This document shows, in pieces, positions 47,376-51,637 of a DNA stretch of 64,000 bases. The notes below the pieces were generated by a model, which worked only from the letters and a program-made list of their open reading frames with translations, made no database searches and was not told the DNA's origin. Numbering within the stretch: the stretch's first letter is position 1; every line of letters starts with the position of its first letter. A program made the position numbers and the translations under genes. Source of the DNA: Candidatus Moanibacter sp. (lineage in GTDB: Bacteria; Verrucomicrobiota; Verrucomicrobiia; Opitutales; UBA2987); the NCBI GenBank assembly GCA_965215885.1, contig CBDCEW010000104.1:276301-340300 (forward strand), read 5' to 3'.

Positions 47376-48069
47376 GGGAATGTTCTAATCCCGTAACTTC
47401 ATGCAATGTGCGGACATTGAATTGACCGCGGATGACACGGATTTACACGGATGGGAAAGCGCGAATTTGGAGTGTAATATGTTGGAATTCAAGATAGTGA
47501 GGTCGCCAAGGTATGGGTCCCGCTGAGCGGGATTGCGACAAGGTTACTAGCGATTTAGGAGTTTCCTCCGCAATCCGATCAAGAATGTCCTGGCAATTAA
47601 CCTGCTCAGGGTACAATGCAGCAAACCTGGTCGCAAGACACATCGGGAACGATGTCGGCATGGAATCGAAGTTTTCAGGTCTCGACGTGCCTGGAGGATC
47701 GCATGTTCAATCAATCCGCGGTGTTCTCGAATCCGTGGGCTACTCTTTCTCTCTTATTCCTCTTCGTTTCCTTCTGTTCAATTCTCTGTGGTCCTCTTTG
47801 GTTCTCGGTGGTGCTCTGTGTCCCCTCTTCTGTTTTTTCGGCTTTCCAGTTTGTTTGAGGTCGTAGGCTGCTTTAGATATCTGGTCTTCCTCAAGATGCA
47901 ATCGTCGCCCTGAGATGGGAGTGGAAGGACTCGAACCTTCATCTGCCCGTTCGTAGCGGGCTGCTCTTCCTTTGAACTACACTCCCGTATTGGCGCCCAT
48001 GACGGGAAGTCCGACAGAAAACTGAGGTAGTCCGTCAAGGGATTTTTTGAGTTTTTTCTCATGTTGTGT

Positions 48070-49380
48070 TTACAAGGCGTTGGCATTTGCTTGCTGAAGT
48101 CTTTTCCACACCGGTGAACCGGTGCGTTGGAGCGATTGGAGATACTTTTGCTCATCGTAGCGTTCGCTATTTTGCCAACAGCGAAACAGAATGCGGGTCC
48201 ACTTGAGAGCGAGGGCACGAAGAATGGTTTGGCGGGGTTTGCCCTGTTCTTTTTTGATCTGGTAAAAGGCCTTTGCCCAGGCACAGTTTCGGATCGAATG
48301 TTCGGCAAATTCAACGAAACTTTGCCGCACGAAGGTAGGAGCCGCCCACCGCCAGTTGACCATTCGTTTCGGTTGTCCGGTTCTTTTGTCCTGCCCGCTG
48401 TTGATCGTGACCGGAGCGGATCCATTCCACTGGGTCATGTTCTGGGCCGTTTCGAAGTGCGAACGATCGGTCCCGAACGCGCACAGCAACCGGGGACTCA
48501 TGACCTCGCCGGCTCCGGGAATGCCACTGAACACGGCTGCATCGGGATGGCTTCTGAATAGCTCCCTGATACGCTTCTCATACGCTTTGATCTGCGGGCA
48601 CAGGGTCAAAAGCTGTCCGGCCAACGTCTGTGCTTTTCTGCTGGATGCTTCAATGATGGCTGCATCTTCGGTCAAGGCTCGTGCGTTACCGATCAATTCG
48701 AGACGCTCCTGGATTTTGGCGTCACTGCGACAGTTGTGCTTATAGAAGAACTTTCGCAAGACACCCTCCGATGCTCTGTGCAGCTTCTTGAGGGTCGGCC
48801 AACGCAATATAAAGTGCAGGCACAGGCCACTGCCTAGATCATCGAACAATTTCAAGACCAAAGGGTTATATTGCTTCAGACAACTGCCCAACTGCTGTTC
48901 GAGGCTGGTAGCCTGATCGACGAATCCACGGCGGTCCTCGCACAACAGGTTCAGCTCCCGTGTTTGGGCCGTGTCAGGTATGAAACATTTGGTAAAAAGC
49001 TCGGGATGTTTGAGGAAAAACTCCGCGTGTATTTGCGCATCGACCGGGTCGCTCTTGGCCCCTGATGGATACAGCGCCCGGCGATAATCCTTCGCCCTGG
49101 CCGCATGCACTGGATAGATATCGACAAACTCCAAGCCCATCAGAAAGTTGATCAACCCTCCTCGCTTCTGGTCCACCACCATGGCCATGCGCTTGCCCAC
49201 GCTGGCATACTTTTCTCTCATCTCTACGGCAAATTCGTGCAAGCTGACCGCATCCTGCGCCACCTGTCGATGGGTCCCTTTTCCCGTTTCGCTCTCTATG
49301 ATCCACAGATCGTTTTTCTGATCCGCCCAATCAATTCCTATCACCACACTATATCGATTTGTTTTTTCCCTTTTCTGCAT
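48070..49380 (-). CDS. IS110-family recombinase/transposase
   Basis: Protein identical to 4850-6160. Confidence 0.95.
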   Translation of the reverse strand: MQKREKTNRYSVVIGIDWADQKNDLWIIESETGKGTHRQVAQDAVSLHEFAVEMREKYASVGKRMAMVVDQKRGGLINFLMGLEFVDIYPVHAARAKDYRRALYPSGAKSDPVDAQIHAEFFLKHPELFTKCFIPDTAQTRELNLLCEDRRGFVDQATSLEQQLGSCLKQYNPLVLKLFDDLGSGLCLHFILRWPTLKKLHRASEGVLRKFFYKHNCRSDAKIQERLELIGNARALTEDAAIIEASSRKAQTLAGQLLTLCPQIKAYEKRIRELFRSHPDAAVFSGIPGAGEVMSPRLLCAFGTDRSHFETAQNMTQWNGSAPVTINSGQDKRTGQPKRMVNWRWAAPTFVRQSFVEFAEHSIRNCAWAKAFYQIKKEQGKPRQTILRALALKWTRILFRCWQNSERYDEQKYLQSLQRTGSPVWKRLQQANANAL

Positions 49381-49413
49381 CCCTTTGTTCCTTTAGTTTG
49401 TCTTTTTGCTTTT

Positions 49414-49580
49414 TTCAAAGGCACTGGATGTCCAGGCGAAGTCCTTATAGTTGGATCCTGTTATGAGGATGTAAACTGAGTGTTCGTTTTCGGTCATCCA
49501 GGCAGGCCGTCCACTCGAAATTCTGTCGGAAGTCCTCTTCGGACTGATTCCTAAGTTCGTAGTGGACGGCTGCCTTTGAA
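49414..49580 (-). ncRNA. IS110 bridge RNA core, copy 2
   Basis: Reverse complement of 4650-4816. Confidence 0.83.
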
Positions 49581-49741
49581 TATTTTCACCCTTAGCCAAA
49601 CAAACTCTTTGACCCATCGCCAACCACTGATCGGCCAAGTTATTCACAAAGGGGCCTCGCCGAGTTTTTCCTGCGGCTCCACTCGGCCCCTTGGATGAAT
49701 AACCTGGAGCTACTATAAGATTCCTGGATGACAAGGGCAGG

Positions 49742-49816
49742 TGGGTTGACCAAAGGGAATCGAACCCTTATCCCCGCAATCACAATGCGGTGCTCTGCCG
49801 TTGAGCTATGGCCAAC
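49742..49816 (-). tRNA. tRNA-His (GUG)
   Basis: G(-1)-TTGGCCA/TGGTCAA-C-CCA acceptor, GCTC/GAGC D stem, CCGCA-TTGTGAT-TGCGG anticodon arm, AAGGG-TTCGATT-CCCTT T arm. Confidence 0.93.
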
Positions 49817-49839
49817 ATGAATTGATGCAACCGGAACAT

Positions 49840-49872
49840 AAAAAAACCCAGGCTGCACAATGCTGCCTGGGT
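49840..49872 (-). terminator. Intrinsic terminator upstream of tRNA-His (attenuator-like)
   Basis: Minus strand ACCCAGGCAGCA-TTG-TGCAGCCTGGGT followed by a T run. Confidence 0.8.
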
Positions 49873-49900
49873 CTTTGGAAACGCTTTATTTACTCTTTTT

Positions 49901-50038
49901 CTATTTCAATTTTAAGAAGGGAGAATTAAGCGAGCCATGCCAGGCAGCATGGGAATAGGTATCCCTATGCAGCTGAAATCGATTCCGCCGCATGAGGCTC
50001 GCCACGTGACAATTTGTGCTTGGTGATGATTTTTCCAT
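49901..50038 (-). CDS. Putative leader peptide (MEKSS...HRDTYSHAAWHGS...; alternative ATG at 49993)
   Basis: Short ORF ending ~28 nt before the terminator and overlapping the antiterminator arm. Confidence 0.4.
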   Translation of the reverse strand: MEKSSPSTNCHVASLMRRNRFQLHRDTYSHAAWHGSLNSPFLKLK

Positions 50039-50476
50039 TGCAGAAATCTGAATAAGGTTTGCGAACTGTCGTGTTTTCCGTGCCGCCGTCAAGACAGAAT
50101 GTTTATCGAAAGCAGCTAATCGACCGTTGACTACGATTATGACAACGACGTTCGAGTGGATCTCTCTCCAAACCTAATGGTAGTCGAATATCGAGTGCGG
50201 CTCACCGACTAACATCCTTAATCTTGAATCGTAAACGCTTAACTGATCACTTCCTTCGATTCGAACAACCCGATCACGCTGTTCGCAACATTCTAAGCCA
50301 GCCACCCTGTAATGCCAGTGACCGTTGGTGGCCGGGTTCTTGACGGACTCTGTAAGGGAGAGGTTGTGGTTTGTCGGTGTGTGGTGCGCCGTAATAGGTT
50401 GTAGGATCTTTCTTAAGTCGCGCTCGTCCTCGTAATCGTTCTCGAATTAGAGAGAAACCTATTTTGGAAATTCGCA

Positions 50477-50509
50477 CTTAATTAACATTTAACAAAAATG
50501 TTAATTAAG
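50477..50509. repeat. AT-rich perfect palindrome, 14-bp arms, AACAA spacer
   Basis: CTTAATTAACATTT-AACAA-AAATGTTAATTAAG. Confidence 0.85.
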
Positions 50510-50581
50510 AGTGCTGTTAATTTTGGAAGGGCGATATAGTGACACTTGAACTCTTGCGGAAGGGTGGTTCTTAGAGTGTTG

Positions 50582-50929
50582 CTAACCGGGAGGCCAGGTC
50601 ATCTGGCGGCCGGCCAGGAGGTGAACATGGAGATGGGGGACGCTCTCTCCCCCATGGGGGCCGTTGTTGATGACGACGCGGAAACCCTTCGCGAAATCAC
50701 CCCTGTTTGCGATCGTTCGCGCTACCAAAAGAAGGTGACCGAGAATCTCCTTGTCGTCGTCATGGGCTTCACCGAGACGCGAAATCACCTTCTTGGGTAT
50801 GACGAGAATATGGGTGGGCGCCTGCGGGTTAAGATCATGTATGGCTATACAGTGATCGTCTTCAAATTCTATATCGGCGGGTATTTCGCGTTCAATGATC
50901 TTTTCGAAAATGGTCTTTTCTTGTGTCAT
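50582..50929 (-). CDS. hinT: Histidine triad nucleotide-binding protein
   Basis: [34 protein letters not shown]. Confidence 0.95.
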
Positions 50930-51393
50930 GTCTCGTAATGATGAGGGCGGTCAAGTTTTGAAATCTCAGCTTCCATTTCCGATATGTCCCGGAAGTCCTT
51001 ATATACACTTGCGAATCTCACGTAGGCGATTTGATCGATCGCTTTGAGTTTTGCCATGACGCGTTCCCCAATCGCCTTGCTAGGTATTTCCAAATCAAAC
51101 TCGCTCTCAAGTTCGACAAGCGCATCGGAGATGAGCATGTCGATTTGCTCGAGATCAATTGGGCGTTTCTCGCAGGCACGGCGAATACCGTTGAGTATCT
51201 TGCCGCGGTCAAACTCTTCCCGGCGATCATCCGATTTGATAACGACAAGGTCTTCCCGCATGACCTCCTCCAGCGTTGTGAAACGGTAATCGCACTCGCT
51301 GCATTGCCGCCGCCGCCGGATAGACAGGCCGTTTTTACCGATTCGTGAATCGATAACCCGTGTCTCTCGGGTGGAACATCTGGGACAGCGCAT
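50926..51393 (-). CDS. nrdR: Transcriptional repressor NrdR
   Basis: MRCP.C, V.DSR, RRRR.C..C..RFTT.E, ATP cone, AYVRFASVY. Confidence 0.97.
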
Positions 51394-51431
51394 GGGGGAG
51401 GAAGAACGGTTTTAGGTTAGCGGTTGTGGGT

Positions 51432-51585
51432 TGTTCAGTGTTCAGTGTTCAGTGTTCAGTGTTCAGTGTTCAGTGTTCAGTGTTCAGTGTTCAGTGTTCA
51501 GTGTTCAGTGTTCAGTGTTCAGTGTTCAGTGTTCAGTGTTCAGTGTTCAGTGTTCAGTGTTCAGTGTTCAGTGTTCAGTGTTCAG
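51432..51585. repeat. Heptamer tandem repeat (TGTTCAG)x22
   Basis: 154 bp of perfect 7-mer between trpG and nrdR. Confidence 0.97.
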
Positions 51586-51637
51586 TGGAGGCTGCACGAT
51601 AGAGTGTTTGGAAAAGTAAAGGGGAAATTCGGAGTAA

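Follow-up and report, generated by a model that had tools for sequence, protein, structure and literature searches.

In a 64,000-nucleotide (nt) stretch of DNA from Candidatus Moanibacter sp. (Verrucomicrobiota, Opitutales; contig CBDCEW010000104.1 of assembly GCA_965215885.1), referred to below as the window, a tRNA-His gene stands on the minus strand behind a short open reading frame (ORF) and a hairpin. We propose that the cassette at 50092-49840, which precedes this gene, is a ribosome-sensing transcription attenuator that gates accessory tRNAs, a reading to which its sequence and that of its relatives lead us to give a probability of roughly 0.58. The window holds the elements by which an attenuator is recognized in DNA, namely a promoter-proximal short ORF, a predicted intrinsic terminator and an antiterminator that is linked to the ORF and mutually exclusive with the terminator; that the leader is translated, that transcription stops at the hairpin and which way the switch is thrown are points that we infer. 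The operon is best read, by comparison of sequences, as a reduced relative of the tRNA gene arrays found in some related genomes. The elements of the cassette are listed here; family statistics given for 16 loci refer to 15 related loci, described below, plus the window.

50092-50087, minus strand: -35 box TTGACG, within a promoter-like site (50064..50092); TTGAC is invariant in 16/16 aligned loci
50070-50064, minus strand: weak putative -10 box GACAGT/ACAGTT, after a spacer of 16-17 nt from TTGACG
near 50056, minus strand: predicted transcription start
50038..49901, minus strand: leader ORF MEKSSPSTNCHVASLMRRNRFQLHRDTYSHAAWHGSLNSPFLKLK, an open frame of 45 codons plus TAG (49903-49901)
49950-49940, minus strand: antiterminator 5' strand ATGCTGCCTGG, within codons 30-33 of the leader ORF, an exact 11-nt complement of 49870-49860
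49952-49935, minus strand: local hairpin CCATGC-loop-GCATGG, which folds and is a candidate anti-antiterminator
49871-49847 (hairpin) and 49846-49840 (U7), minus strand: intrinsic terminator, a predicted fold; the homologous hairpin covaries in the 16 loci
49742..49816, minus strand: accessory tRNA-His(GTG) with G-1, C73 and an encoded CCA (ARAGORN and Rfam)

A preliminary description of this DNA, made from the letters alone, had named the ORF, the terminator, the complementarity and the tRNA-His gene, and each of them was located on the minus strand where it had been placed. The frame can be read as 63 amino acids from a TTG (50092..49901) or as 45 codons from the ATG at 50038; this ATG lies 54 nt after the start of TTGAC, and the stop codon ends 29 nt ahead of the hairpin. 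CTTGAC-type -35 boxes stand 45-55 nt upstream of many tRNA genes in the source genome, where weak -10 boxes are a general trait. From the last T of the terminator (49840) to G-1 of the tRNA (49816) there are 23 nt. The tRNA-His(GTG) was called at 49742-49815 by both ARAGORN and Rfam (63.2 bits), and it looks functional, since G-1 (49816) pairs with C73 and the CCA is encoded.

The leader can form mutually exclusive pairings. The terminator hairpin, CCCAGGC-A-GCA-TTG-TGC-A-GCCTGGG (49871-49847), is followed by seven T (49846-49840) and folds at -22.2 kcal/mol (z -4.41), with one of 200 shuffles equally stable; a simple terminator scan overlooks it owing to the internal A.A mismatch. The ORF segment ATGCTGCCTGG (49950-49940), read as its reverse complement, is identical to CCAGGCAGCAT (49870-49860) in the terminator 5' arm. 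Folding of the nascent leader as far as the terminator loop gives a minimum free energy structure that pairs 49870-49860 with 49940-49950 in full (11/11), so that the 11-bp complementarity of the preliminary description holds both in the letters and in the fold. The local alternative that it had also pointed out, CCATGC/GCATGG, is likewise present in the sequence and in predicted folds: it pairs 49952-49947 with 49940-49935, and this hairpin, which takes in the antiterminator strand, lies inside a multibranch fold that is closed where 50001-49996 pairs with 49938-49933. For the full leader the terminator state is predicted at -67.5 kcal/mol, versus -63.1 kcal/mol for a forced antiterminator state, a gap of 4.4 kcal/mol, and the 285-nt leader as a whole is more stable than shuffled versions of itself (z -3.0; 0/200 as good).

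A strict scan of the 6.36-Mb assembly for a hairpin followed by T6 gave 68 terminators, among which the longest upstream complement to a 5' arm is that of the window terminator (10 nt within the arm as defined by the script, 11 by eye; next best 9, 8 and 8). The arrangement of complement and terminator in the window is not a product of chance. Canonical terminators of this type are rare in the source genome, to judge from the 68 found in 6.36 Mb. An Rfam search of 49300-50700 at E<=10 gave no T-box, in agreement with the preliminary description, and no other family beyond the tRNA and chance-level matches; across the whole window no Rfam cis-regulator reached its gathering score.

A cassette family ahead of tRNA arrays

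BLAST of 49816-50580 over 41 genomes (its own and 40 relatives) produced matches in its own genome only, including dispersed repeats. The window holds a second tRNA gene, a tRNA-Arg. Three further genomes of the order have relatives of it (77-86% identity), which form part of compact arrays of 9-12 tRNA genes; the hairpin and T-run upstream of those arrays are plainly homologous to the window terminator. With one array head as query, BLAST against 401 genomes of the order found a shared 27-nt core motif at 15 loci, which belong to 14 genomes; six weak matches without the core (L131-L136) are excluded from all counts. The conserved leader and pairing that the preliminary description had suggested seeking upstream of homologous tRNAs are thus found at 15 loci of 14 related genomes. 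tRNA genes follow within the fetched DNA at 13/15 of these loci, with up to 9-12 of them tightly packed. Loci L126 (G141:C8) and L137 (G083:C38) carry the full promoter, ORF, terminator and downstream motif and have no tRNA gene within 1.5 kb downstream; the cassette may also stand ahead of genes other than tRNAs. Some array members are odd: at L120:1843-2063, L109:1668-1744 and L130:2634-2706 ARAGORN calls tRNA-Asn(ATT), tRNA-His(ATG) and "tRNA-???" with two-base anticodons.

The layout recurs throughout the family. The invariant TTGAC has AT-rich DNA upstream of it, and its distance to the ATG is 51-56 nt in 15/16 loci and 74 nt in one. A leader ORF of 39-64 codons occupies the same place in all 16 loci, its stop codon ending 23-32 nt ahead of the hairpin in every case, and the probability of such an ORF in shuffled sequence is 0.003-0.058 per locus. 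In the terminator stem, 96.1% of cells are paired, 20 cells are changed on both sides and none of 500 shuffles is as good; in four of its eight pairs both partners have been exchanged (A-U to G-C). Outside the ORF and the pairing, the leader from promoter to terminator shows little conservation across lineages; the encoded peptides are almost unalignable across lineages and belong to no Pfam family, which is also true of the window peptide. Compared with 1.84 billion representatives, the 63-aa ORF of the window has no credible relatives; three matches at E<=0.001 were judged spurious, since each of these proteins is internally repetitive or duplicated and matches in 3-9 stretches. Of the eight differences between the two closest leaders, five are synonymous and three non-synonymous (36 synonymous versus 126 non-synonymous sites), an excess that fits a translated frame; in other pairs the non-synonymous proportion (pN) is below the synonymous one (pS).

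The alternative pairing is a family trait as well. At each locus the ORF contains, in its 3' half, a segment that can pair with the terminator 5' side; this segment stops 46-79 nt short of the hairpin, and the target comprises 12 nt of 5' flank together with the initial 12 nt of the hairpin itself. These antiterminator duplexes are predicted at -15.8 to -27.1 kcal/mol, versus -11.0 to -17.7 kcal/mol for the hairpins, and the 11-bp duplex of the window is the best of the family. With dinucleotide shuffles of the region, p is <=0.05 in 11/16 loci (worst 0.257). Over ten lineage representatives the Fisher value is 1.1e-6 (3.5e-6 with the window omitted), and it is 1.7e-8 when the arm is shuffled instead; because the ten lineages have common ancestry and were delimited by eye, these p-values make them look more independent than they are. 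Controls are flat, both when the 3' arm replaces the 5' arm (p 0.41) and when a region further upstream is used (p 0.73). The pairing sequences vary between lineages, CTTGGGTTAAATCAAA with TTTGATTAAACCCAAG being one example, and both strands have therefore changed together. When the arm alone is tested, the ranking across lineages is indecisive since all arms share GCCC; tests that include the 5' flank are clearer.

Between the terminator and the arrays, 15 loci carry a structured RNA motif of ~110 nt, for example at L117:1802-1907 (+), L118:1528-1633 (-) and L128:1457-1563 (+). It consists, in order, of a covarying hairpin P1, the 27-nt core AAACGTCACGTAAATGGCGTCCAAACC, a covarying hairpin P2 within CGUCC/GGGGCG, and GAGAGGGGCGAAAC. 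Compensatory changes are seen in 7/17 predicted pairs, and the outer helix begins at the terminator U-run: in the relatives this U-run and the next ~9 nt pair with a covarying strand 37-207 nt past the motif, with compensatory variants in 10/15 loci (Fisher 3e-7). An array RNA of the relatives that contains the U-run helix must start at or before the terminator. The motif has no Rfam match at E<=1, and among 151 genomes of the class its covariance model (R1) picked out a single match, weak and partial (E 7.9e-5). A processing site, a ribozyme and a second regulatory element are candidates for its role. Four matches of the core in metagenome_contigs lack the motif context and look like chance or something else. 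The relatives also share a conserved nACAGT box 17-19 nt past the hairpin 3' arm, which could be a -10.

Proposed switch mechanism and competing explanations

The switch could operate in the following way. Transcription would start at a sigma-70-type promoter (TTGACG), and ~20 nt of leader would precede the ORF. In naked nascent RNA the antiterminator would form first. A ribosome in step with the polymerase would cover the antiterminator strand, or would just have unwound it, and the strand would refold locally; the terminator could then form and the tRNA genes would stay largely silent. Ribosomes that lag or stall upstream (through tRNA shortage or damage, inhibitors or starvation) would leave the strand free to pair with the emerging terminator 5' arm, and the polymerase would read into the tRNA genes. 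The opposite sign may also apply, with active translation promoting read-through.

Several observations weigh against the attenuator proposal or against details of it. In the classical trp geometry a ribosome at the stop codon masks segment 2, whereas here the antiterminator strand lies well upstream of the stop; a ribosome at the window stop codon would not cover 49950-49940, which is 36 nt upstream, so that the trp geometry is not directly applicable and the switch may be thrown in either direction. No Shine-Dalgarno-like sequence is present in the 20 nt upstream of the ATG at any locus inspected, and no shared stalling motif was seen among the leaders. Codons read by the downstream tRNA-His and tRNA-Arg are not enriched in the window leader (5/45, p 0.15); in three array leaders, codons read by the array tRNAs number 27/63, 19/62 and 16/52, and the other two frames give similar counts. 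Thus neither the window nor these array leaders show the cognate codons that mark leader-peptide attenuators. The cassette was found in just 14/401 genomes of the order. The synonymous excess between leaders is equally explicable by a functional small protein with its own terminator, and the common ancestry behind the Fisher values belongs on this side as well. The downstream motif has no match (0) in the source assembly, and the window copy may be a decaying remnant, given this absence and the insertion sequence (IS) found in the operon. In favour of the proposal, a 201-nt metatranscriptome contig (X9), identical to the window (0 differences), spans 50003-49803, that is, the leader, the terminator and 14 nt of tRNA-His; it is a weak hint of transcription through the terminator, given its depth of 3.4 and possible DNA carry-over. 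In another run (X10), contigs lie at 50150-50344, 50529-50809 and 50926-51134 while the leader has none, and in X9 neither hit nor nrdR is covered; at such depths these gaps are uninformative.

The cassette might be no more than a small protein gene that has a promoter and a terminator of its own, the tRNAs being transcribed by leak-through or from an unrecognised promoter and the complementarity being non-regulatory. A promoter, an ORF and a terminator 23-32 nt past the stop do make a normal monocistronic layout, and the five synonymous versus three non-synonymous differences of the closest pair, with pN below pS elsewhere, suggest constraint on the peptide. A separate tRNA promoter could escape notice where -10 boxes are weak, and the nACAGT box of the relatives could supply one. 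Such a gene would nevertheless encode peptides that can barely be aligned, with neither a Pfam family nor a credible relative in the protein search, and the lineage-specific complementarity of the ORF 3' half to the terminator 5' side would go unexplained. The U-run helix puts the array transcript start at or before the terminator, TTGAC is absent between the downstream motif and the first tRNA in 12/13 loci, and in the window the gap from terminator to tRNA is merely 23 nt. We therefore regard this explanation as unlikely, while taking it seriously. A relic, in which a cassette once part of a larger array is now decaying and its tRNA is silent or constitutively leaky, is a distinctly minor possibility. 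It would account for the missing downstream motif, for an operon with just two tRNAs left and an IS between them, and for a degenerate second tRNA-His region on another contig (C59) that is flanked by two IS elements; it does not sit well with a -35 box, an ORF, an antiterminator of 11 bp (the family's best), a terminator and a tRNA that are all intact, nor with contigs of two other RNA runs that cover parts of the leader with 1 and 3 differences.

Two further explanations keep a switch and change what it senses. In a hisL-type attenuator specific for His, one of the options in the preliminary description, stalling at His codons would raise tRNA-His transcription. The window leader does have four His codons in 45, a higher share than the 2.18% of the genome's long ORFs (uncorrected p 0.017), and codons 17-25, immediately ahead of the antiterminator strand, include three for Arg and one for His. 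The His codons form no run, however, and three of the four CAT codons lie inside or beside CATG-containing hairpin arms and may be by-products of RNA structure. The counts for codons of the two downstream tRNAs, given above, do not help, and a related leader that precedes an array starting with tRNA-His, in genome G078, has no His (0) in 53 codons; other related leaders have 0-4, without relation to the identity of the first tRNA, and the arrays contain many different tRNAs. A ribosome stalled at codon 30 or 34 would moreover cover the antiterminator strand and favour termination, whereas homeostasis would call for the opposite sign. The observations do not support sensing of His codons, and we consider a hisL-type switch very improbable. 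A ribosome-independent switch, in which the multibranch leader (50001-49933) binds a ligand, a protein or a tRNA, is scarcely more credible. The stability of the 285-nt leader relative to its shuffles would suit it, as would an antiterminator strand held in a hairpin inside a closed multibranch structure and the conserved RNA motif that the relatives have beyond the terminator. Yet the Rfam search of 49300-50700 at E<=10, which found no family and no T-box, gives no backing to the ligand control that had been suggested, the leader, unlike an aptamer, shows little conservation across lineages outside the ORF and the pairing, and an ORF kept at a fixed position in 16/16 loci would have no explanation. 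What stands of the earlier reading is thus the leader ORF, the terminator and the exclusive antiterminator before a tRNA; His-specific sensing and a ligand riboswitch are not supported.

The accessory tRNA pair and its genomic setting

The window tRNA-His is one of a pair. The other two features of the operon are these:

48007..49725, minus strand: IS110-family insertion sequence (transposase 48070-49380; Pfam DEDD_Tnp_IS110 and Transposase_20)
47916..47986, minus strand: accessory tRNA-Arg(ACG), evidently the second gene of a former two-tRNA operon

The source assembly (6.36 Mb in 105 contigs, 90.3% complete, 5.47% contamination) has 45 tRNA genes according to ARAGORN, including two tRNA-His(GTG) and two tRNA-Arg(ACG). 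A second, housekeeping tRNA-His, which the preliminary description had proposed looking for, is indeed present at C36:38022-38096, and the second tRNA-Arg(ACG) lies on C105; both look canonical. C36 and the main contigs carry identical IS copies, and C36 therefore comes from the same organism. The window tRNA-His shares 76.9% identity with the tRNA that opens the G078 array, itself a tRNA-His with the same unusual acceptor stem, versus 70.5% with the canonical tRNA-His of its own genome; for the window tRNA-Arg the values are 82.4% to the tRNA-Arg of the G078 array versus 64.1% to the canonical tRNA-Arg(ACG). With canonical counterparts elsewhere in the genome and closer kin in the G078 array, the two window tRNAs are, by sequence, supernumerary: spare tRNAs of the array type. 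Among 200 other genomes of the order, the window tRNA-His had no full-length match, only short partial ones (E 0.002-0.008), the G078 array tRNA-His at 76.9% having fallen beneath the threshold of that search. An exact 23-mer of the gene had 0 matches in metagenome_contigs and 0 in genome_contigs. Elsewhere in the assembly ARAGORN calls a tRNA with anticodon TTA ("tRNA-Stop") at C4:68867-68936, as well as a tRNA-SeC.

The IS110-family element (1719 bp) begins 16 nt behind tRNA-His and has at least 9 further near-identical copies in the genome. It splits a dispersed motif between AGGAATCT and GTCGG; this motif occurs uninterrupted 256 times in the genome, and all copies of the element are inserted there. 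With the element removed, ~53 nt separate tRNA-His from tRNA-Arg, and the arrangement marks the two as a former two-gene tRNA operon that is now split by the IS, a pair that the preliminary description had overlooked. At C59:14437-14590 (locus L013, ~1500-1650) lies the degenerate second copy of the T-run, the spacer and tRNA-His, for which ARAGORN makes no call; this copy too is followed by the IS110 element, inserted at the corresponding position, and its homology to the window ends in the terminator loop, directly beside a frameshifted DDE transposase gene. The element has features of its own. If its right and left ends were joined, as on circularization, the junction would read TTGACG-N17-TATAGT, a strong promoter, and the 340 nt from the left end to the transposase start are non-coding; this stretch could hold the guide (bridge) RNA known for the IS110 family.

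The neighbours of the operon in the window are the housekeeping genes dprA, hit, nrdR, a glutamine amidotransferase gene, tgt, secA and lnt, interspersed with IS elements, and a prophage setting was rejected on account of these flanks. A phage origin of tRNA-His was rejected as well: the best phage match is tRNA-His of mycobacteriophage Myrna (79.2%), and the core of the downstream motif has 0 matches in viral_contigs. A tRNA behind hit is not a conserved arrangement; of 14 loci around the closest HIT-protein genes, 13 are without a tRNA and the remaining one carries a tRNA-Gly. The intergenic DNA upstream of the leader promoter (50114-50194) and downstream of tRNA-Arg (47410-47876) is filled with short dispersed repeats, 40-170 nt long and 67-96% identical, that occur in dozens of copies spread over many contigs. 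At 50481-50513 (-), ~70 nt past the hit stop codon, there is a perfect 14-bp AT-rich palindrome, CTTAATTAACATTT-TTGTT-AAATGTTAATTAAG, without a T-run; it could serve for protein binding or as a terminator of an unusual kind. Between nrdR and the amidotransferase gene, at 51400-51600 (+), lies a tandem repeat with a period of 21 nt; all three plus-strand frames are open through it, and two encode CSVFSVQ repeats.

Relation to known attenuators and tRNA arrays

Leader-peptide attenuators are classically those of amino-acid operons (trpL, hisL, pheL, leuL, thrL and ilv). The cassette resembles them in its promoter-proximal short ORF, in a terminator placed before the regulated genes and in an ORF-linked segment that is exclusive with the terminator 5' arm; it differs in that they regulate biosynthetic enzymes, whereas here tRNA genes follow, the leader is longer (39-64 codons) and cognate codons form no run in it. 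Resistance genes of the erm and ABCF types have antibiotic-inducible leaders, which are likewise believed to couple stalling on an upstream ORF (uORF) to antitermination, with a resistance protein as output instead of a tRNA. T-boxes precede aminoacyl-tRNA synthetase and amino-acid genes and need no ORF; they too tie a choice between terminator and antiterminator in the leader to tRNA status, but the window shows no specifier loop, no T-box sequence and no match to the family (RF00230; Rfam, E<=10). tRNA genes are themselves textbook cases of growth-rate and stringent control exerted at the promoter. We know of no description of leader-peptide attenuation of tRNA genes, and a full-text search of the literature outside most subscription journals and supplements returned no account of it. 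As far as these searches show, tRNA genes are new targets for attenuation of the leader-peptide type within the literature covered.

In lacking cognate codons the cassette resembles stress-sensing uORF attenuators such as that of whiB7. According to one account, stalling on the uORF in the 5' leader of mycobacterial whiB7 is believed to cause antitermination and to sense many translation stresses; the uORF varies considerably in sequence between species, keeps its place and is enriched for alanine (PMC10274678). The family described here shares the variable uORF at a kept place and the freedom from cognate codons, and it differs from the whiB7 leader as portrayed there in having tRNAs instead of a transcription factor as output and no compositional signature that we could find (PMC10274678). 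The tRNA array of Anabaena PCC 7120 is described, in the main text of the study concerned, as silent and as induced when translation is impaired, its control being attributed to direct repeats over the -10 box and start site and to a putative repressor; Verrucomicrobia are listed there among the phyla with tRNA arrays, and the words attenuat-, leader and terminator are absent from that main text (PMC8421152). The window shares with this array the supernumerary, horizontally spread tRNA genes beside a housekeeping set, and differs in having just two tRNA genes (PMC8421152). Read-through caused by lagging ribosomes would fit, by analogy, the stress induction of the Anabaena array as given in that text (PMC8421152). 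By the definition of a tRNA array unit, or L-array, given in another study, at least 20 tRNA genes are needed at a density of at least 2 per kb (PMC4758250); the window has two tRNA genes and its relatives have 9-12 in the stretches fetched.

Putting these observations together, we suggest tentatively, and at somewhat less than even odds, that the cassette keeps reserve tRNAs behind a general sensor of translation capacity, in which a leader ORF of arbitrary sequence lets ribosome traffic set the terminator or the antiterminator, a second, hitherto undescribed structured RNA coming after the terminator in the full arrays. If so, there would be direct feedback from ribosome performance to tRNA supply, and this could provide a defence against stresses that deplete tRNAs, such as anticodon nucleases, phage attack or ribosome-targeting antibiotics. 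An attenuator before accessory arrays would also offer a concrete and testable mechanism for an array that, as the main text of the Anabaena study has it, is silent until translation is impaired (PMC8421152). The cassette family supplies natural covariation for mutational tests, together with an additional RNA motif. Should the cassette prove to be an attenuator, the ribosome would be gauging its own supply of tRNAs.

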